A stretch of DNA of 64,000 nt. It comes from an uncultured delta proteobacterium (GTDB taxonomy: Bacteria; Myxococcota_A; Polyangia; Haliangiales; Haliangiaceae). A program made the position numbers and the translations under genes. Where the stretch lies: the NCBI GenBank assembly GCA_963848295.1, contig CAWKDB010000002.1, positions 1,024,001 through 1,088,000 of the forward strand. Direction: 5' to 3'. The notes under the pieces were generated by a model. That model was not told where the DNA came from. It saw nothing but the letters and a program-made list of their open reading frames with translations, and did no database searches. How positions within the stretch are numbered: position 1 is the first letter of the stretch; the number at the start of each line of letters is the position of its first letter. Below, piece after piece: positions 108 to 14,693 of this stretch.

Positions 108-2240
108 TCAGCCGCGCCCGCCCTCGGCCATCCTCACGTCGATGCGCGCGAGCAGCTTGCGGACGCGCTCGGCCATGTCGTCGAGCTCGGACAACCCGGA
201 CGCAGCGCCGAGCTTCTGCGCGAAGTTCATGACCCGGATCAGGTAGCCGAACAGGTTGCCCTCTTCGTGCTCGAGGCCGTGCTTGTCGACGAACTCCAAG
301 AACCCCACGCCGCTGTCCTCGAGCTGCGCCCACACCGTCTTCGGCTTCTTGCCCCCGTGGAGCTCGGGGTGCGGGACCTTGCTCGAGAACTCTTGATGGA
401 TCACCTCGATCTTCGTCAGCGGTCGCGGGTGCGCCTTGTCCCATTCGGCTTCGATGTCGTCCCAGGTGACGTGCGGGTTGTCCATGCGCGCCTCGCGCAG
501 CCGCGTGCGCATCCACTCGCGCTTCTCGTCTTCGCCCTTGCGGCTGAGCAAGCGCTGGATGATGTCGTGATCGATCAGATATTCGACGAGCTCGCGCAGC
601 TCGATGTACTCGAGCTGATGGTTGAACAGCACGTAGAAGATCAGCAGGCCATCCATGCCCTGCAGCTCGCGGATCATCTGGCCGGAGATCTGCTTGCCGT
701 GCTCGTCGAGCACGCCGATCGCGCGCATGTTCGCGACGAGCTGCTCGAGGATCTTCGTCAGCTCCTTGCGATCGCGATCCCCGAGCAGGAGGTTCTCGAT
801 CACCGTCACGATATCGAGCCGCATCGACGGCGGCAGCGACGCCTCGGTCGCCGCGATCCGCTTGTCGAGGTCGGACAGCGGCACCTCGGTGAGATCGGGC
901 AAGCCGATCGCGAGCACTTGCTCCGCGGTGATCTTCGTCTTGCTGCGCAGCTCGGCCGGCTCGCCGCGGACGAGCTCGGCGTGCGAGTCGGGCGACCACG
1001 TCACATCGCCCTTGCGTTGCGCATCGCTGCGCGCGCGGTTGTAGACGCTCTTCGTCACCTTCGACACGTCGTAGCCCGGGCGCTTCGCGGCGTCCTTGAG
1101 CTCCTTGCGCAGCTCGACGACCACGTCTTCGGGCGCGAGCGTCACCGCGAGGCCCTTGTCGTCGAACTGCGGCCGGCCCGCGCGACCCGCCATCTGGTGA
1201 TACTCGGCCGCGGTGATCATCCGCGCCTGCTGCTTGATGAACTTGCGCAGCGACGGAAACACGACGGTGCGCGCCGGCAGGTTGATCCCCGCCGCGATCG
1301 TCTCGGTCGACACCACGAACTTGATCAAGCGCTCGAGCGCGAGCTGTTCGACGAGCTGCTTGTAGCGCGGCAGGATGCCGGCGTGATGGATGCCGATGCC
1401 GTGGCCGAGCAGCGGCCGCAGCTCCTTCGCGGCGCCACTCGGCAACAACGCCTCGTCGCACAGCGCCTCGATCCGCGTCTTCTCCTCGTCGGTCGTGAAC
1501 CGCCGGCACGACTTCAACAGGCGCGCGACCTCGAAGCACTGCTCGCGGCCGAACACGAACACGATCGCGGGCACGTCGCCGCCGTGGGCGAGCTCGCGCA
1601 CGGTGTCGATCAGCATCTCCTCGCGGTAGTCGTGGACGAGGGGCACCTTGCGCTCGCGCGAATCGACGAGCTCCATCGTCGACGCGGCGGGTGAGCGTCG
1701 ACCCACTGGCAGAACTTCTCGGGGTGACCGACCGTCGCCGACAGGATCACGAGCTGCGTGCGCGGATCGAGCCCGATGATCGATTGCTCCCATACGTAGC
1801 CGCGCTCGGGGTCGTTGAAGTAGTGGCCCTCGTCCATCACGACGATGTCGGCGGGCGACACGTTCTTGTCGGCGACGATCCGATTCCACAGGATCTCGGC
1901 GACCTCGACCTGGATCGGCGCCTCGCGATTGACCTTGTAGTCGCCGGTCGCGAACCCGACATAGCCTTCGCCGAAGTCGGCGCACAGCTCGCGATACTTC
2001 TCTTCGGTCAACGCGCGCAGCGGCGTCGTGTAGATCGCGCGCTGGTTGCGGCCCATCGCGGCGTGCAGCGCGGCCTTCGCCATCAGCGTCTTGCCGGTGC
2101 CGGTCGGCACGGTGACGAGCAGGCTCTTGCCGGCGAACACCGCGGTGATCGCACTGCTCCTGGACCGGGTACGGTTCGAGGCCGCGGCTCCACAGGAACT
2201 TGTCGTAGAACGAAAGCTCGAGGTCGCCGTCGCTCGTCAC
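108..2240 (-). CDS. Ski2/HelY-like DEAD/DEAH-box (SF2) helicase, frameshifted
   Basis: PTGTGKT, DEGH and SAT motifs in ORF 1610..2140; HHAG, TETIAAGIN and QMAGRAGR in ORF 108..2240. Frame breaks near 2153 and 1680-1700. Confidence 0.85.
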   Translation of the reverse strand: MTSDGDLELSFYDKFLWSRGLEPYPVQEQCDHRGVRRQEPARHRADRHRQDADGEGRAARRDGPQPARDLHDAAARVDRREVSRAVRRLRRRLCRVRDRRLQGQSRGADPGRGRRDPVESDRRRQERVARRHRRDGRGPLLQRPRARLRMGAIDHRARSAHAARDPVGDGRSPREVLPVGRRSPAASTMELVDSRERKVPLVHDYREEMLIDTVRELAHGGDVPAIVFVFGREQCFEVARLLKSCRRFTTDEEKTRIEALCDEALLPSGAAKELRPLLGHGIGIHHAGILPRYKQLVEQLALERLIKFVVSTETIAAGINLPARTVVFPSLRKFIKQQARMITAAEYHQMAGRAGRPQFDDKGLAVTLAPEDVVVELRKELKDAAKRPGYDVSKVTKSVYNRARSDAQRKGDVTWSPDSHAELVRGEPAELRSKTKITAEQVLAIGLPDLTEVPLSDLDKRIAATEASLPPSMRLDIVTVIENLLLGDRDRKELTKILEQLVANMRAIGVLDEHGKQISGQMIRELQGMDGLLIFYVLFNHQLEYIELRELVEYLIDHDIIQRLLSRKGEDEKREWMRTRLREARMDNPHVTWDDIEAEWDKAHPRPLTKIEVIHQEFSSKVPHPELHGGKKPKTVWAQLEDSGVGFLEFVDKHGLEHEEGNLFGYLIRVMNFAQKLGAASGLSELDDMAERVRKLLARIDVRMAEGGRG

Positions 2241-2266
2241 GCTCGACGTGTACCAGCGATCGGGTC

Positions 2267-2290
2267 GGGGACGCTGTCGGTTTTGTCAAC
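2267..2290 (+). repeat. Single copy of GGGGACG-N9-TTGTCAAC repeat
   Basis: ggggacgctgtcggttttgtcaac; matches the copies at 9317, 9383, 40684, 40758, 45102 and 45175. Confidence 0.8.
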
Positions 2291-2298
2291 TAACGCCG

Positions 2299-5200
2299 TC
2301 AACGCGCCAGCAGCGCCTTGGCGTTCGCCACGACGCCATCGTACGTCGAGTGCCACTTCCGGCTGACGATGTCGTGGAGCTCGGCCTTGCCTTCTGCGCT
2401 GCGTCCGAGCGCGAGCAGCTCTTGGGCCTCTTGCAGCCGGAGCGCCGGATTGCTCTGGTCGACCACCACCGCCTGGTGGCGGAACGGTTGCGCCTCGCCG
2501 AGCCGGCCGAGCTTTGCGTAGACGGTCGCGACCGCGACATAGCCCGCGCTCGAGTACGGATCGCGATCGATCTCCGAGGACAAGTAGCGCCACGCTTCCG
2601 TGCGGTCACCGTCGCGCAGCAACAGCTCCCCGAGGTCGCGATCGATCGAGCTATCGCCGAGGTCGAGCTCGCGGCCGCGGTCGGCCCAGTGCTTCGCGCG
2701 CGCGACCGCCTCGGTGTGCGCACGGCCGTGGCTCTGGAGTGCGAGCTGCGTGCAGTCGTCGAACATGTGGCGGAGCTCGGCGGCGACCACCGAGCGCGTG
2801 ACCGGCGACCCCGCCGCATCGAACGCGGCCTCGTAGTGGGCGAGCGCATCGCCATAGCGCGACTCCGAGTCGGCGATCTCGCCTGCCAACATGTGAAGCT
2901 CGCGCGTGCCGACGCGCTGGACGAGCGGCTCGAGCACGCCGTCGGCCCAGGCGGTCAGGCCGTATTGCCGCGCCGCCGCGATCATCGCGAGCTGATCGTC
3001 GACGTCATCGCCGGCCAGCTCCGACGCGCGCTGCAGCGTCGCGAACAGCTCGGCGCGATCGCGCGCGGCGATCGGCACCATCGCCATGACGTGGGCAAAG
3101 CTCCGGCCGGCGAGCACGCGGTCGCTCCACGTGTGCCACAACAACTGCCAGCCGGCGTCGTTCGAGGTCGCGGTCGCATACACCTGCGCGACCTGCTCGA
3201 GCATCGGCGGCATCGCGTCGAGGTCCGGGTTCGACATCAGATCGACGATGCGTTCGCTGGCGCGCTCGTCCTGACCGGCCCATTGCCACTCCTGAGCCGC
3301 CCGCGCGCGAGCTACGTTGCGCAGCTCGCCTACCGCGATCGCGTCCCACGCCGCCGCGCGTTGCTCGTGCGGCACTCGCCCGTAGCTCGTCATCAACTCG
3401 ACGACCGCGCGACGCGCCTCGACGGCGCGCTCGTCGATCGACAGCAGCGCATCGAGCGCGGCATGGGTCGAGGCATGGCCGTCGGACGCCGCGTGCGCCG
3501 CCGATCGCAGCGTCCACAAGGTCCCGATCAAGGTGTCGCGCAGCACCGCGGCCGGGCGCGCGCTCGGGATCGAGCTGTTGCGACCCTCGAGCGCGAACAG
3601 CGCGACCGGATCGTCCGCCAGCGGCGCGAGCGCCGAGACGAGCTCGCGATCGAGGGCTTGCCCGGAGCTCGCGATGCTTTGGCTCGCGAGCGCGACATCG
3701 CCGCGCGAGATCCCGCCGTGATGCGCGAGATCGAGAAACGCCTTGCCGATCGCCTCGCTGTCGTTGCCGGCCGCCAGGCTCGCGAGCAGCTCGCGCTGGA
3801 GTTGCCGCCATGCCGGCGTCCCGATCGGCAGCGCCGCGAGACGCGTGGCCCAGTACGGAGGCGCGTGCTCGGGGAGCTCGACCGTGACGTCGGACCGCGG
3901 TCCGGGGTTCGCCCAGGCGACGGCATCCGGGATCGGACTCAGCTCGTAGCTCGCGGCGAGGTCTTGTCCACGGACGCGTGCGGCGCTCGGGCCGCTGTCG
4001 GTCCAGGTCACCGCGACGACCGTGTGCGCGTCGCCATCGGTGACCGCGATCAAGCGATCCCTGTCGTCGAACCGCAGCACGTATTCGACGCGAGCGACGC
4101 CGTCGATCGTCGCGGCCAGCGCGACCTCGTGCGGTCCCCGCGCGGCGACGTCGAACCACTTCGCCCAGTGCGCGGGCTCGGCGATCCAGATCGGAAACGA
4201 TCCGAGCGCGAGCGCGATGTCGTCATCGCCGATGTCGCGCGTGACGTCGAGCCCGAGCTCGACATAGCGCCGCGTCCAGCGCGCCCCGTCGAAGGCCGCG
4301 GTCTCGTCGAGCAGGTACGGCGTCGTCGTCCGCCAGCCGAAGTGATGCGCCGGGTCGACCGCGATGTCGCGATCGCCCCAGTGATAGAGGCCCGCCGGCA
4401 ACGCATCGTGGGCCCGTCGCAGCAACTCGCGCGCCGCGGCATCGATCGTATGCGGGCCGGCACCATTCGCGCGCAGCTGCGCTCGCACGGTATCGATATC
4501 GTCGCCGCTGAGGCCCGGAACAAATGCGCTGACGTCGCCGAACCCGCTCCTGACCGGCTCCGTCAGCTGCTTGAGGTTGTAGACCGGGATGGTGATGTCA
4601 TCGCCGGCGCGGATATGAAACGCGGAGCCTTCGTCGTGCGCGAGGTAGCCTCGGTGGACCAGCTGGAGCTGGTAGCGACCGCTCCCCAGGACATCGATCG
4701 GCTCGACCCTCGGTCCCCACGCATCACCGGACGCGTGCGATTGTTCCGCCTCCTCGGGCGACGTGGTGATGGTCAGACCGCCCGCGAACCTGCCGTCGAT
4801 CTCGAGCTCGCGAATCGCCGGCGCCCTCGTAAACCAAGTGGGTGTGAAGCTCTGCGCCGAGGGCACGACGAGCGGCCGACGTACGACCTCGGTGTCGCCG
4901 AGATCGACGAGAGGGCGCACGGCGCTCGTCCACGCCGCGGTCACCGGGATCGTCGCGGGCATCGCGTAAGGAGCCCAGGTCGCGCCGTCGCCCTTCTTGA
5001 CGCCGTACTGCGCGTACATCGCGTCGTTCTCGAGCACGAGCAGCGACGTGTGGCGCGACAGCAAGAAGTAGCGCTTGCCGAGCGCGACGATCTGGCGCCG
5101 CAACTGCTCGTCGCGAGCCTCGCGCGGGTCGGGGATGTCGGCGGTGCCGACGGCATCGGCGGCCACCGGCTCGTACTTCGCGGCGAGCAGCGCGTCGATC

Positions 5201-7404
5201 TTTCGCTGGGCCCACAGCCGCGGCAGATAGCCCGCGTTCGGCGTCGGGGCGGCGAGCGCGATCCGCTGCGACCACGGCTTGCCATCGCGCGTGCCCGTGA
5301 TGACTACCGCCGTCGGGGTCGCGTTGCCGGTCAGCTTCGCGACGAGCTCGAGTTGCTCGCCATCGGCGAGTTGCGGCGACCGAACGAACGCGCTCGAGGC
5401 CACGTCGCTGCCGTCGCTCGCGACGAGCCTCGCGACCAAGCCCGTGATCCGCGACGTATGCAGCGCCGCGACGAGATCGAGCACGCGCCAGTCGAGATCA
5501 TCGGCGAGGTCGATCGTCGTGGCGTAGCCACCCGTCGCCGCGGCGAGGCCCGCGAGCAGCCCGGTATCGACGCCATCGCCGAGCCCGATGCCGACGAACT
5601 GCGCGTTGCCGACGAGCTTGTCGCGCAGCGCATCGAGTTGGGTCGCGCCGGCCGTGACCACGCCGTCACCGAGGTAGATGATCGTCGCGTCCTCGGGTGC
5701 GACGCCAGCGAGCAACGGCAGCGCGGTGTCGAGCGCCCCTGCGACATCGGTCGCGCCGATCCCGCCTTCGGTGGCGAGCGCTCGACGAAGCGCAGCGCGG
5801 TCGACATCGCGAACCTTGGTGAGCCCGAGCTTGACCCGCGCAGCGGCGTCGAACGCGACCACCGCGACGCGATCGTCTTCATCGAGCTCGCGCATCAGCG
5901 CATCGACCACTTCGGTCTGCGCCTCGAGCGCGAGCTTGTCGCGCGACGCGCTGACGTCATCGAGGATGACCCAGGTGCGCGGGCGATACGCGGCGCGGGC
6001 GGAGCCCAGTCGATCGAAGTCGAGCGGCGCGCGGACGAGCGCGAACCGATCGTCGCCGTCGCGCGCGATGCTGAACGTCACCGCGTTGCGTGGGTCGCGG
6101 ACCCGCACGACCAGCGCGTCGCCGATCTTCTCGGCGGTGCCGTGATAGCGCACGATCGCATCGTCGCCGTCGCGCGTGACCACGATGGGATAGCTCGTCG
6201 CCGACAGCTCGCAGCGCGCGCACCCTTTGACCCGCATCGCGATGTCGAGCTCGCCGACCGGACGGTCGACGTCGGGCAACGGCACGGTCAGCGTCCAGTC
6301 GTCGTACAGCTTCGGCAGGCTCTGCGTGTAAGCGAGCGCGAGGCGCTTGTCCTGGTGCGCGGGCAACGGATAGACGCGCAGCGCGAGCCGACCGGCGCCG
6401 GCCCACTCGAGCAACGCGGGATCGACCCGGCGATAGACGAGGTCCTCGTAGATCCGGCGCGCGCTCATCCGCTCCACGACCGCCGATTCCATCAGCTTGC
6501 CGTCGACGTACATCGCGAGCCGTTGCAACGCGGCGTCCGGTGGAATCGCGAAGCGATAGATGCCTTCGAGATCCTGATCGGAGTCGTTGCGGAACGTCTG
6601 ATCGATCGCGACGCGCGCGACTTGGTCCTCGACGACGATATCCAGCCCGAGCTTCATGATCGGCAGCGGGTACTCGTCGCCCCACGGCGGATGCGAACGC
6701 AGCCCCGGATCGCGAGCGAACAGCGTGCCGTGATGTCCGATCGCGGTCGGCGCCTCGCGCCGAACCTCGCGCGACCAGCTGACGAGCTCGGACAACCGCG
6801 GTGCCGGGCCGCGGACCGGGGCGCGCCCAGCCGCGACCACGCCTTGATCGCCGGCGTGCAACACGAGCTCGCCGCGGTCGCCGATCAGCTTCACGACGCC
6901 GCGCAACACCGCCGCGATCGTTTGATCGGTTTCGGCGTCGACGAAGAACTTGGTGCCGAGCACCTCGATCCGGCCGCGTGCGGTGTCGACGACGAAGTCG
7001 CCCTTGCCCGGCACCACATCGAGCAGCACCGCGCCGGTCACCCGGACGTGACGCGGACCGACGACCGCGAGCGTGCTGCCCGCGCGCGCGACGTACGTCG
7101 TGCCATCGGCGAGCGTGCCGGCGCCAGTCTGCGGCTGGCTGAGGCCGGCGACGGTTCCCGGGTGGGCGACGAACCGCAGCGCGACGAACGCGATCGCCGC
7201 GGCGGCGGCGAGCCCGATGCCGAGCGCGAGCAATGGCGTGCGCAGCTTGGCGCGAACGGCGGGCACCGCCGCGGCGGCCGCGTGGTTCGAGAGCAAGGCT
7301 TCGCGAATCCGCACGCGCGCGGCGTCGGACATCTGCGGCGGCTCCCCACCGCCTTCAAGCAAGCTCGAGACGTTGTGCTCGAGCACATCGGTTTCGGATT
7401 TCAT
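2299..7404 (-). CDS. Large membrane-anchored FecR + VIT + vWA + TPR-like protein (putative anti-sigma fusion), ~1701 aa
   Basis: ATG at 7404 overlaps the ECF stop (ATGA). TM helix LLALGIGLAAAAAIAFVAL; FecR-like FVVDTARGRIEVLGTKFFV; VIT (DQTFRN..LEGIYRF..DPALLEW); MIDAS DVSAS and YLGDG; C-terminal TPR-like helices. Confidence 0.8.
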   Translation of the reverse strand: MKSETDVLEHNVSSLLEGGGEPPQMSDAARVRIREALLSNHAAAAAVPAVRAKLRTPLLALGIGLAAAAAIAFVALRFVAHPGTVAGLSQPQTGAGTLADGTTYVARAGSTLAVVGPRHVRVTGAVLLDVVPGKGDFVVDTARGRIEVLGTKFFVDAETDQTIAAVLRGVVKLIGDRGELVLHAGDQGVVAAGRAPVRGPAPRLSELVSWSREVRREAPTAIGHHGTLFARDPGLRSHPPWGDEYPLPIMKLGLDIVVEDQVARVAIDQTFRNDSDQDLEGIYRFAIPPDAALQRLAMYVDGKLMESAVVERMSARRIYEDLVYRRVDPALLEWAGAGRLALRVYPLPAHQDKRLALAYTQSLPKLYDDWTLTVPLPDVDRPVGELDIAMRVKGCARCELSATSYPIVVTRDGDDAIVRYHGTAEKIGDALVVRVRDPRNAVTFSIARDGDDRFALVRAPLDFDRLGSARAAYRPRTWVILDDVSASRDKLALEAQTEVVDALMRELDEDDRVAVVAFDAAARVKLGLTKVRDVDRAALRRALATEGGIGATDVAGALDTALPLLAGVAPEDATIIYLGDGVVTAGATQLDALRDKLVGNAQFVGIGLGDGVDTGLLAGLAAATGGYATTIDLADDLDWRVLDLVAALHTSRITGLVARLVASDGSDVASSAFVRSPQLADGEQLELVAKLTGNATPTAVVITGTRDGKPWSQRIALAAPTPNAGYLPRLWAQRKIDALLAAKYEPVAADAVGTADIPDPREARDEQLRRQIVALGKRYFLLSRHTSLLVLENDAMYAQYGVKKGDGATWAPYAMPATIPVTAAWTSAVRPLVDLGDTEVVRRPLVVPSAQSFTPTWFTRAPAIRELEIDGRFAGGLTITTSPEEAEQSHASGDAWGPRVEPIDVLGSGRYQLQLVHRGYLAHDEGSAFHIRAGDDITIPVYNLKQLTEPVRSGFGDVSAFVPGLSGDDIDTVRAQLRANGAGPHTIDAAARELLRRAHDALPAGLYHWGDRDIAVDPAHHFGWRTTTPYLLDETAAFDGARWTRRYVELGLDVTRDIGDDDIALALGSFPIWIAEPAHWAKWFDVAARGPHEVALAATIDGVARVEYVLRFDDRDRLIAVTDGDAHTVVAVTWTDSGPSAARVRGQDLAASYELSPIPDAVAWANPGPRSDVTVELPEHAPPYWATRLAALPIGTPAWRQLQRELLASLAAGNDSEAIGKAFLDLAHHGGISRGDVALASQSIASSGQALDRELVSALAPLADDPVALFALEGRNSSIPSARPAAVLRDTLIGTLWTLRSAAHAASDGHASTHAALDALLSIDERAVEARRAVVELMTSYGRVPHEQRAAAWDAIAVGELRNVARARAAQEWQWAGQDERASERIVDLMSNPDLDAMPPMLEQVAQVYATATSNDAGWQLLWHTWSDRVLAGRSFAHVMAMVPIAARDRAELFATLQRASELAGDDVDDQLAMIAAARQYGLTAWADGVLEPLVQRVGTRELHMLAGEIADSESRYGDALAHYEAAFDAAGSPVTRSVVAAELRHMFDDCTQLALQSHGRAHTEAVARAKHWADRGRELDLGDSSIDRDLGELLLRDGDRTEAWRYLSSEIDRDPYSSAGYVAVATVYAKLGRLGEAQPFRHQAVVVDQSNPALRLQEAQELLALGRSAEGKAELHDIVSRKWHSTYDGVVANAKALLAR

Positions 7405-8024
7405 ACGGCCTCCGACAGGTGGCTCGACAGCGCGGCGAACGTGTCGCGGAACGCGCGACGCGCGCGAGCGAGTAAAGACTTGGTGGCGTCGATCGAGATC
7501 CCGAGCTCGCCGGCGAGGGTCTCGAGGGTCTCGCCATCGACGTACTTGCGCGTCAGCGCGGTGCGGTACTGCTCCGGAAGATTTGCGATCGCCATGTGGA
7601 CGAGGTCGCGGGTCTCCGCGCGCTCGAGCACTTCGCCCGGCAATGGCCGCTCCGCCATCGCCGCGAACGTCTGCGCGAGCGTCGCGTCGATCCGCTGCCA
7701 CGCCTCGCGGAGCTCGTCACCGCGATGGTGGGCGCGCAGGTGATCGCGAATCACGTTGCGCGACAGCACCGCGAGCCAGCTGCCGAGCGAGCCACGACTC
7801 GCGTCATAGTCGGCCGGGCGCGATAACGCGTTCGCGAACGTCTCTTGCACGACGTCCTCGGCGACCGCGGCATCACGGCCGACGCGATAGAACACGAACG
7901 TGTACAGCCCGGCGACGTGCGCGTCGTACAGCCTCGCGATCGCCTCGGCATCGCCGGCGCGTGCGCGCTGGAGCTCGGCCGAGCTGCCCGATCGGAAGAG
8001 CCGCGCGAACAGCGCGCCGATCAC
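7401..8024 (-). CDS. ECF-type RNA polymerase sigma factor
   Basis: Region 2 (AEDVVQETF..SWLAVLSRN) and region 4 (LPEQYRTAL..ETLAGELGIS..KSLLARAR). Confidence 0.9.
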   Translation of the reverse strand: MIGALFARLFRSGSSAELQRARAGDAEAIARLYDAHVAGLYTFVFYRVGRDAAVAEDVVQETFANALSRPADYDASRGSLGSWLAVLSRNVIRDHLRAHHRGDELREAWQRIDATLAQTFAAMAERPLPGEVLERAETRDLVHMAIANLPEQYRTALTRKYVDGETLETLAGELGISIDATKSLLARARRAFRDTFAALSSHLSEAV

Positions 8025-8102
8025 GTTTCACCTTGCATGAGTGGTGGTGTCAACGGCGGGATCAGAGGTGTCGCACTATCTTGCGCGGCCATCACCGCTT
8101 CG

Positions 8103-8180
8103 CCATTCCGGTTCCGCTTCACCGTCCACTATTTCCGGGCGAATAGTGAGTAGTAAACCGGGAACCGGAACCGGAACTGG
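8103..8180. repeat. Nested imperfect palindrome with GGAACC hexamer repeats in divergent intergenic region
   Basis: ttccggttccg (8106-8116) pairs with cggaaccggaa (8166-8176); inner stem cactattt/gaatagtg (8127-8148). Confidence 0.65.
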
Positions 8181-8196
8181 AGTGCTACGGTGCGCC

Positions 8197-9312
8197 GTGG
8201 CGTTCGATGGGCCTCTGATCGCCGACCGTTATCGACTCGGTGACCGGCTCGGCAAGGGCTCGCAGGGCGAGATCTATCTCGCCCGTGACGAGAAAGCGAA
8301 AGGCGCCGAGGATCGCGAGGTCGTGGTCAAGCGGCTGACCCCGCGCGGCACGTGGAAGTCGTTCGAGCTGTTCGAGCGTGAGGCGAAGGTGCTGTCGCAG
8401 CTCCGCCATCCGGGCGTCCCTCGCCATCACGCGACGGTCGAGGCACCGCCTGGCACGTTCAACCTCGTGATGCAGCGCGCACCCGGCGAGAACCTGCGCG
8501 ACCAGGCGAAGCGCCGCCGGTTGTCCGAGACCGAGTTGCGCGACGTGCTCGTGCGCACGCTCGAGATCCTCGACTACCTACAGACTCGCTCGCCGGTCGT
8601 CGTCCACCGCGACATCAAGCCCTCGAACCTCATCCGCGCGCCCGACGGTACGATCACGCTCGTTGATTTCGGCGGCGTGCTCGATGCCGCGCGGGAGGCC
8701 GGCGGCTCGACCGTGGTCGGCACGTTCGGCTACATGGCGCCGGAGCAGCTCCACGGCAAGGTCACCGGGGCGACCGACATCTACTCGCTCGGCGCCACGA
8801 TCGTCGCGCTCGCCGGCGGGATCGAGCCCGAGGACGTGCCGCGCAAGGGCCTCACGATGGACCTCGACCGCCATCTACCGTCCCTCGATCCCTGTCTGCG
8901 AGCGACCCTGGTCGCGATGACCGATCCCGATCCCGATCGCCGGCCGCAACGCGCCCGCGATGTCCTCGCCCTGCTCGCGAAGAGTCGACCGCGGCGCAGC
9001 TCCGCGTCGCCGCGCGACCGAGCGCTGGTCCGGTCCTCGCCCTCGCCACTCGCGCAACGCCGGCTGTTCGCCGATGTGGCCGAACCGGTCGGCACGCTGC
9101 TCCGCCTCGGCGTGCTCGGCTTCGGCGCCGGCGGCTGGATCGGTATGGTCGCGCTCCGCCTCAACGTCATGATCGTGTTCGCGATCGCGATGGCGCTTGC
9201 CTTCCCCGCGCGCAAGAAGATCCGCGGCGTCGGTACCGAGCTCGACACCATGCTGTCCGAAGGCCAGAGCGGCTTCACCGCGATCATGAGGGGCGCGATG
9301 GCTCGCGACTAA
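8197..9312 (+). CDS. Ser/Thr protein kinase with C-terminal hydrophobic segment
   Basis: GKGSQG, VVVK, HRDIKPSN, DFG, GTFGYMAPE. GTG start chosen after an extended -10 (TGCTACGGT). Confidence 0.9.
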   Translation: MAFDGPLIADRYRLGDRLGKGSQGEIYLARDEKAKGAEDREVVVKRLTPRGTWKSFELFEREAKVLSQLRHPGVPRHHATVEAPPGTFNLVMQRAPGENLRDQAKRRRLSETELRDVLVRTLEILDYLQTRSPVVVHRDIKPSNLIRAPDGTITLVDFGGVLDAAREAGGSTVVGTFGYMAPEQLHGKVTGATDIYSLGATIVALAGGIEPEDVPRKGLTMDLDRHLPSLDPCLRATLVAMTDPDPDRRPQRARDVLALLAKSRPRRSSASPRDRALVRSSPSPLAQRRLFADVAEPVGTLLRLGVLGFGAGGWIGMVALRLNVMIVFAIAMALAFPARKKIRGVGTELDTMLSEGQSGFTAIMRGAMARD

Positions 9313-12727: not shown

Positions 12728-13017
<290 letters not shown>

Positions 13018-13028
13018 GGAGTAGGACC

Positions 13029-14693
<1,665 letters not shown>

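Follow-up and report, generated by a model that had tools for sequence, protein, structure and literature searches.

The question raised by this locus is whether an extracytoplasmic function (ECF) sigma factor can be governed by a giant FecR-type anti-sigma factor that senses through an ectodomain of its own, with no dedicated TonB-dependent receptor. The locus lies in a window of 64,000 nucleotides from an uncultured delta proteobacterium (assembly GCA_963848295.1, contig CAWKDB010000002.1); coordinates without a prefix are positions in this whole stretch, where the operon is on the minus strand, those prefixed G000, or C alone, belong to the same genome and L-numbers are extracted loci. A sequence-only reading had described here a sigma gene coupled to a protein of about 1,701 residues with a cytoplasmic N-terminus, one transmembrane helix and FecR, VIT, vWA and TPR parts, and on this architecture Pfam, hydropathy, a family profile and a structural model agree. 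The two genes are:

7401..8024, minus strand: ECF sigma factor gene, 207 aa, with an amphipathic N-terminal helix and a long sigma2-sigma4 linker, both conserved
2299..7404, minus strand: giant single-pass anti-sigma candidate, 1,701 aa, in a single frame

The 207-residue sigma open reading frame (ORF) matches Pfam Sigma70_r2 (E 4e-13) and r4_2 (E 2e-11), its best NCBIfam matches being generic, and its TGA overlaps the ATG of the giant gene as ATGA at 7401-7404, as had already been noted. The giant is very likely the anti-sigma factor of this overlapping ECF sigma factor, because the linkage of the two genes is fixed and because a co-fold of the sigma with the first 56 residues of the giant, a check proposed with the earlier reading, reaches an ipSAE of 0.64 against 0.00 for the best control. 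The earlier description of a one-component system gives way to that of a two-protein ECF/anti-sigma switch. As to how this switch is thrown, we tentatively favour an anti-sigma that is predicted to nick itself, acts independently of a TonB receptor and would be released by damage to the envelope, most likely by proteolysis of the ectodomain.

Orthologues of the giant are present in 19 of the 24 genomes of the same genus, a few of them cut at contig ends, and a protein search returned 321 matches, among which all 120 relatives listed carry FecR, VIT and VWA, most of them being 1,650-1,850 aa long and those with names being Kofleriaceae. Two of the 19 non-self loci are cut by contig ends and so could not be scored for an upstream sigma; at the other 17 the upstream DNA is present, and each has the sigma gene (74-83% identical) with the same 4-nt overlap. 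An ECF gene thus stands directly upstream wherever these orthologues could be scored, and relatives of the same architecture without a sigma exist. Seen from the sigma, for which 85 of the 121 family genomes, in 6 of 17 genera, have one match each, the giant is present at all 49 loci examined (29 best non-self matches and 20 picked mostly at the divergent end, from 48 of the 84 other sigma-bearing genomes), and the five genomes of the genus that have no giant have no sigma either. An unpublished genome (G010) adds one locus each to the 17/17, to the 49/49 and to the promoter and TIMP counts given below, and leaves the conclusions unchanged.

An assembly fusion as the origin of the long ORF, or a chance pairing of the two genes, had to be examined directly, because the assembly carries frameshift errors nearby, namely in a helicase gene, in groEL and in a paralogue of the giant. 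Single-frame orthologues with the same architecture in many independent genomes, together with the fixed linkage, refute this explanation, to which we attach practically no weight.

The part of the giant predicted to hold the sigma factor precedes the membrane helix:

7282..7392, minus strand: cytoplasmic two-helix anti-sigma domain, residues 5-41, based on invariant residues, the model and the co-fold

In the model the helices span residues 5-17 and 27-41, and L8, N11, V12, L15, P23 and L37 are invariant in 111 aligned sequences, among which no zinc motif is seen in this domain of the giant. The co-fold was run on paired 34-row alignments built for this analysis, with which the benchmark counts (116 of 157 solved complexes and 2 of 215 mismatched pairs attain the mark) apply only roughly; its runs share 88% or more of their contacts, and the partner pLDDT is at least 73. 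The closest contacts listed place helix 29-41 on sigma2, with residues 7-20 and residues of sigma4 also in the interface, and the predicted complex supports binding of the sigma by residues 1-56. Class I anti-sigmas are described as having a dual sigma2/sigma4 interface (PMC7406223), and the predicted interface is alike in having one helix on sigma4 and one on sigma2; the class I domain comprises four helices with or without Hx3Cx2C, whereas the giant has two helices and lacks a zinc motif.

The next two parts of the giant bear on how the sigma may be released:

7162..7239, minus strand: transmembrane helix, residues about 56-81, alanine-rich, from hydropathy
6760..7122, minus strand: FecR-like juxtamembrane domain (PF04773), residues about 95-215, with a predicted self-cleavage site G150-T151 at 6952-6957

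Residues 54-81 form the one hydrophobic stretch in the giant, and 106 of the 111 orthologues have an AA pair somewhere between residues 50 and 90; an alanine-rich membrane helix has been linked to processing by RseP and Clp (PMC10328401), and RseP is encoded in this genome. The FecR assignment is upheld by Pfam (residues 99-172, E 2e-7, above the cut-off), and a profile of the first 460 residues of the family aligns residues 82-244 of E. coli FecR (E 5e-17) such that G181-T182 falls on G150-T151, a dyad that all 111 aligned sequences share; a single-sequence search of the PDB with the FecR part gave nothing significant. FecR is reported to cleave itself at G181-T182, its halves staying joined until TonB-driven dissociation triggers further cuts that end with RseP (PMC12036975), and the giant probably nicks itself likewise at Gly150-Thr151. 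This dyad, like the operon promoter described below, was absent from the earlier reading and was found here.

The alignment with E. coli FecR ends at residue 244 of 317, where the C-terminal part of FecR starts and where VIT then follows in the giant, and FecR_C (PF16344) has no match in the giant or in the genome. The receptor-binding C-terminal part of FecR thus appears to be replaced in the giant by a body resembling ITIH1, one of the inter-alpha-trypsin inhibitor heavy chains (ITIH). Since the receptor-docking subdomain has given way to other ectodomain parts, sensing may proceed with no dedicated TonB receptor, and we think it quite likely that the giant has none. The observation that no TonB receptor adjoins the pair in the window stands, the neighbours being a helicase and a kinase.

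The ectodomain itself comprises four parts:

4945..6684, minus strand: ITIH-like body, residues about 241-820, with VIT/beta-sandwich, vWA (about 5455-5976), a second beta part and helices, and invariant C395/C398
4540..4863, minus strand: hypervariable glycine-rich linker, residues 848-955, a candidate bait region
3850..4452, minus strand: beta-sheet domain, residues about 985-1185, likely LolA/RseB-like, from the strand-helix order in the model and hhalign
2302..3849, minus strand: alpha-solenoid ending in TPRs, residues 1186-1701, from the model, with only TPR/solenoid matches

Pfam places VIT at residues 254-359 (E 1e-19) and VWA_3 at 479-628 (E 6e-11). The vWA domain had been said to have an intact metal ion-dependent adhesion site (MIDAS), and its residues D483, S485, S487, T552 and D580 are indeed invariant in all 111 aligned sequences. 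The likening of VIT-vWA to the ITIH architecture is borne out by the model of residues 1-847 (pLDDT 85, pTM 0.83), for which the best Foldseek match is human ITIH1 (6FPY; E 5e-29, 601 columns, root-mean-square deviation 8 A, 15% identity). The following stretch of about 500 residues, previously left unassigned, can now be divided into the linker, the beta-sheet domain and the alpha-solenoid. Across members the linker is 107-238 aa long, with 17% Gly and a mean identity of 11% against 36-74% elsewhere. ITIH4 is reported to contain a long variable, protease-susceptible region, the cutting protease being captured through the MIDAS (PMC7793589), and by analogy the linker may occupy the position of that region. 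By eye, residues about 900-950 (4540-4700, minus strand) look like the remnant of a short beta-sandwich in this member and its closest relative, and are not Gly-rich there as they are in others.

The model of residues 945-1701 (pLDDT 93) shows the beta-sheet domain and then a solenoid of about 500 residues. Aligned by hhalign with a 30-sequence LolA alignment, the beta-sheet domain gives a probability of 51% (E 1.5e-4, 103 columns) where five controls give at most 0.7%, and leads for a LolA-like fold in the Atlas reach 0.88-0.89, under its bar of 0.9; Pfam and PDB profile searches with residues 985-1185 yield no match, and fold searches with the whole C-half model return TPR proteins only. The domain is likely to be LolA-like, an assignment that structure search leaves unconfirmed. 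TPRs are placed at about 1575-1690 by the family profile and the model, Pfam seeing none on this protein, and the ITIH C-terminal domain has no Pfam match, the C-terminal half consisting of the beta-sheet domain and the solenoid.

Upstream of the sigma gene lie two further elements:

8048..8073, minus strand: predicted ECF promoter of the operon, CGACACCT-N13-TGACA, with the -35 at 8066-8073 and the -10 at 8048-8052
8021..8038, minus strand: 5-codon upstream ORF, which starts 9 nt past the -10 and whose TGA overlaps the sigma GTG (GTGA)

CGACA-N17-GACA precedes the sigma gene at 57 of 58 loci, and the site at 8048-8073 is the best matrix match in its own genome, at 28 bits; no sigma-70 promoter was found in 1900-8400. 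Among the matches listed, a strict pattern occurs 87 times in 59 of the 121 family genomes, against 3 times for the reversed control, most genomes that have it having one site each; a loose pattern was dropped as too near background. From the ECF-like spacing and the co-occurrence we infer that the sigma reads this promoter. Short ORFs similar to the 5-codon one end on the sigma start in many relatives (seen by eye and not counted), and its spacing matches the 7-10 nt seen at the predicted target genes; it is likely to be a leaderless start coupled to the sigma.

Forty sites away from the operon were fetched, 39 from the strict pattern (three more being left out) and one from the loose pattern, several of them orthologous to each other. 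At 27 of the 40 a start codon follows the -10 TGACA by 7-10 nt, and 25 of these 27 have a crude signal peptide, against a random background of 0.9%; none of the four sites that come from genomes without the sigma shows such a start with a signal peptide. Ten of the 40 lead to small exported TIMP/NTR-like proteins with an invariant A-C at the predicted mature start, the Cys following the signal peptide, and in the reverse direction the promoter was found at 6 of 20 further TIMP-like loci compared with 2 of 300 random windows. A literature search on bacterial TIMPs gave nothing relevant. One locus, L393 (G135:C511:19161-20929), has a tandem of four TIMP/NTR-like genes behind one copy of the promoter. 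A 21-bp tandem repeat at G000:C2:523900-523963, upstream of a 195-aa gene, resembles the promoter motif, probably by chance.

Beyond the orthologues, which form class A, the giant has more distant relatives of several kinds. In class B a different ECF gene is followed by a gene for a zinc-type or degenerate anti-sigma domain, a transmembrane helix, FecR, VIT, vWA and TPR, mostly 1,300-1,550 aa in all. A genome scan gave 279 relatives, of which 80, titled Polyangia, Myxococcota or Deltaproteobacteria metagenome-assembled genomes, were kept. Class C comprises exported or lipoprotein FecR-VIT-vWA forms without a sigma. The Gly-Thr dyad is kept in 19/19 class A orthologues, in 76/80 sigma-linked class B proteins and in 7/30 sigma-less relatives, and DxSxS in 19/19, 79/80 and 9/31, respectively (145 proteins less 9 duplicates, 6 without upstream DNA, in sets chosen by profile). 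In a tree of 80 rows classes A and B are separate with the sigma-less forms between them, and within one subclade of class B decay of the sigma goes together with loss of the MIDAS. This genome has a class B paralogue of its own at C10:2720353 (G000:C10:2718513-2725300, L001:4514-11301); there, genes for a membrane Ser/Thr kinase and for a different ECF accompany a zinc-anti-sigma FecR-VIT-vWA-TPR gene that is split by a frameshift.

The planctomycete forms, which are 1,900-2,400 aa long, share the domain order of the giant, and a hidden Markov model finds a sigma, in a few cases weakly, at 50 of the 62 planctomycete-type loci with enough upstream DNA. Some of these relatives resemble class B in carrying a zinc motif in the anti-sigma domain, and some have STN, secretin, WD40 or RcpC matches. 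In a FastTree phylogeny with a midpoint root, and no test of monophyly, the non-zinc planctomycete sigmas group with the sigma of this locus (support 0.99), and the zinc-type planctomycete and class B sigmas form separate clades. A profile search over representatives gave 485 matches; from the 150 listed, 25 were scanned, and any with an assigned family proved to be the same kind of giant or a fragment of one. Among the planctomycete-type metagenome loci (L306-L381), about 26 of 51 share a motif of their own upstream of the sigma, CGAAGGATT...ACAT, whose spacing resembles that of the myxobacterial promoter.

Taken together, these features can be assembled into a working scheme. The two cytoplasmic helices are predicted to clamp sigma4 (residues 7-20) and sigma2 (residues 29-41), and self-cleavage, by comparison with FecR and FoxR, would leave a periplasmic piece of roughly 1,550 aa held non-covalently on a short membrane stub. 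The ITIH-like body, the bait-like linker, the LolA-like domain and the TPR solenoid would stand in for the receptor-docking subdomain of FecR. The trigger is the least certain part: the variable linker might be cut and the attacker captured in a MIDAS-dependent manner as in ITIH4, which would loosen the outer piece, and RseP might then cut the alanine-rich helix and free the sigma. As output, the sigma is predicted to transcribe the operon that encodes it; in relatives its predicted targets extend to genes, leaderless by appearance, whose small products are exported and in some cases TIMP/NTR-like. The earlier idea that the ectodomain binds a ligand or is cleaved by foreign proteases may be right, and gains indirect support from the variable linker and the TIMP/NTR-like predicted targets; proteolysis as the trigger we hold a little more loosely than the scheme as a whole. 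A bolder version, in which the pair would be a protease alarm akin to adhesion G-protein-coupled receptors or Notch-type receptors, self-nicked, baiting and capturing attacking proteases through the fast-evolving linker and the MIDAS of an ITIH-like ectodomain, shedding it and switching on exported TIMP-like inhibitors, is rather unlikely.

Several observations weigh against proteolytic release or its supposed output. The co-fold may pass because of likeness to solved ECF/anti-sigma complexes, self-cleavage of FoxR has been reported to be non-essential for signalling (PMC10328401), and the contrasts in the Gly-Thr dyad and the MIDAS lie between clades of profile-chosen sets and are not independent events. 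In planctomycete relatives with an orthologous sigma the MIDAS is degenerate, being of ExSxD type in 34 of 48 parsed and DxSxS in 0 of 48. The TIMP likeness is weak (Pfam TIMP E 0.034 and NtA E 0.028; in the PDB, agrin NtA E 0.006 and N-TIMP-2 E 0.14), and NtA-type folds need not be protease inhibitors; TIMP-like genes occur in only 30 of 121 family genomes, 14 of the 20 further TIMP-like loci have no promoter, and the predicted targets are for the most part exported proteins of unrelated kinds (SNase, RCC1, OmpA, DUF6438). In this genome, which is 85% complete and contains frameshift errors, a second promoter site was not found, and its TIMP-like gene (C2:309179) has no promoter motif.

Of the explanations to be set against proteolytic attack, which remains the likeliest if only tentatively so, the nearest keeps the same self-nicked anti-sigma and changes the trigger to ligand binding and a mechanical pull. 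The MIDAS, LolA-like or TPR parts would grip an outer-membrane protein, a lipoprotein or lipopolysaccharide, and force or a mislocalised lipid would detach the ectodomain, possibly through a conserved divergent TonB-like membrane protein. The likely LolA-like domain of the giant speaks for this, as do the STN, secretin and RcpC pieces of some planctomycete relatives and a protein of 350-410 aa that is encoded divergently upstream and matched at 39 of 49 sigma loci. The latter has a membrane helix of a putative SxxxH, TonB-like type, but it has no Pfam family and is unlinked in this genome (C10:1149586); moreover, a structure search did not confirm the LolA-like fold, and class B paralogues may not share the domain. 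Activation of FecR itself is described as a force-driven dissociation of the nicked halves (PMC12036975), which again favours a pull. On balance such a trigger is possible and less likely than proteolysis.

It would seem improbable that the giant is mainly an envelope effector, an inhibitor or a scaffold, with the sigma as a private refill loop in which any loss of the giant frees sigma to make more of it with no specific sensing. In this genome the operon's own promoter is the one clear site, family genomes in which the strict pattern occurs mostly contain it once, and sigma-less FecR-VIT-vWA lipoproteins and exported forms exist, all of which such a loop would accommodate; it fits less well with extra sites that stand far above control in many relatives and lead to exported proteins, and with the keeping of the Gly-Thr dyad and the MIDAS alongside a linked sigma and their decay where the sigma is lost. 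More improbable still is canonical FecIRA-type cell-surface signalling through a TonB-dependent transducer encoded elsewhere. The FecR domain with its Gly-Thr dyad and the two STN matches in the genome speak for it, yet the alignment with E. coli FecR stops short of the C-terminal part, FecR_C is missing from giant and genome alike, and a receptor gene was recognised neither next to the pair at the mapped loci, of whose neighbours a part was scanned, nor among the 29 predicted targets scanned. As far as sequence comparison goes, the pair falls outside FecIRA signalling on two counts, the receptor-binding subdomain and a linked receptor.

Around the operon, the gene downstream is a DEAD-box helicase (108-2140, minus strand) which, like groEL (12728-14693, plus strand), is split by frameshifts, probably long-read indels; in relatives the helicase is intact, at about 710-740 aa, next to the pair. 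Upstream a divergent Ser/Thr kinase (8197-9312, plus strand) has a C-terminal hydrophobic stretch, and its orthologue is often a few genes from the pair in relatives; it was rejected as a part of the system, being often near but in varying positions. Residues 1-11 of the sigma (7992-8024, minus strand) form the conserved amphipathic N-terminal helix, with a hydrophobic moment of 1.47, which could target the membrane. The divergent membrane protein of 350-410 aa in Myxococcota is exemplified by L025:2049-3227 and L026:5246-6322, and by eye its gene is apparently preceded by a sigma54-like GG-N10-GC element. Four more ECF genes of this genome are each followed by a gene for a FecR-domain protein of 380-500 aa (G000:C11:443279-445410, C10:4051549-4053335, C10:3894485-3896247 and C10:2494144-2496020), in the same genome that is without a FecR_C match.

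The pair represents a family of ECF sigmas and anti-sigmas that has gone unstudied although it is frequent in Kofleriaceae and has relatives across Polyangia and Planctomycetota; it offers a promoter open to testing, a predicted site of cleavage and a set of candidate target genes. These genomes commonly encode VIT-vWA proteins, and no paper was found that treats them as anti-sigma sensors; here one such protein is wired to a transcriptional read-out, and its ligand should therefore be findable with a reporter. The architecture suggests that the self-nicking domain of FecR is a portable release switch with no need for a TonB receptor, and the pair would be a self-contained alarm for envelope damage, conserved in myxobacteria. 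If the protease alarm were true it would be, in Myxococcota and Planctomycetota, the first signalling role for a bacterial ITIH fold, and would place bacterial TIMP-like proteins in a regulatory setting.

How far the system is new depends on the level of comparison. Receptor-less FecR and vWA traits alone are not new, because FecR-like anti-sigmas with no TonB receptor are already on record in the ECF classification (ECF267 and, in Spirochaetes, ECF242), as are vWA-bearing putative anti-sigmas (ECF226 and ECF289), the vWA there being joined to DUF3520 (PMC7826278); the VIT form does not appear in the classification text consulted. A literature search found no paper on an ECF with a FecR-VIT-vWA anti-sigma, and an earlier bioinformatic mention is possible, for example in a study of 79 planctomycetes that defined 30 new ECF groups. 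[quoted passage not shown] In ECF226 and ECF289 the putative anti-sigma is likewise single-pass and bears a von Willebrand A domain, and that text describes no FecR, VIT, LolA-like or TPR parts for it (PMC7826278).

The human ITIH heavy chains share the VIT/beta-sandwich and vWA fold over about 600 columns (ITIH1, 6FPY) and an intact MIDAS, and ITIH4 also has a long variable region after the body (PMC7793589). They differ in being soluble plasma proteins, and the giant has 15% identity and no match to the ITIH C-terminal domain. In RpoE-RseA-RseB, an envelope-stress ECF is likewise paired with a single-pass anti-sigma, and RseB is a separate protein while RseA is cut by DegS. The likeness extends to a likely LolA-fold domain on the periplasmic side, with the difference that the giant carries the candidate domain within its own chain and is predicted to make the first cut by itself. 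SigI-RsgI offers a self-cleaved anti-sigma that carries its own distal sensor and acts through dissociation followed by RseP and Clp, differing in Asn-Pro cleavage within an unrelated fold, carbohydrate-binding sensors and Gram-positive hosts (PMC10328401). Closest in the membrane-proximal part are FecI-FecR, FoxI-FoxR and PupI-PupR, which share an ECF gene overlapping that of a single-pass regulator, a homologous juxtamembrane FecR domain with its Gly-Thr site and the presence of RseP (PMC12036975). Against FecI-FecR the giant has 1,701 residues compared with 317, no receptor-binding subdomain, no linked TonB receptor, a different cytoplasmic domain and predicted targets that are not iron uptake genes. 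By analogy with both systems, the giant would work like FecR and RsgI, as a nicked anti-sigma factor that gives up its sigma when the two pieces dissociate.

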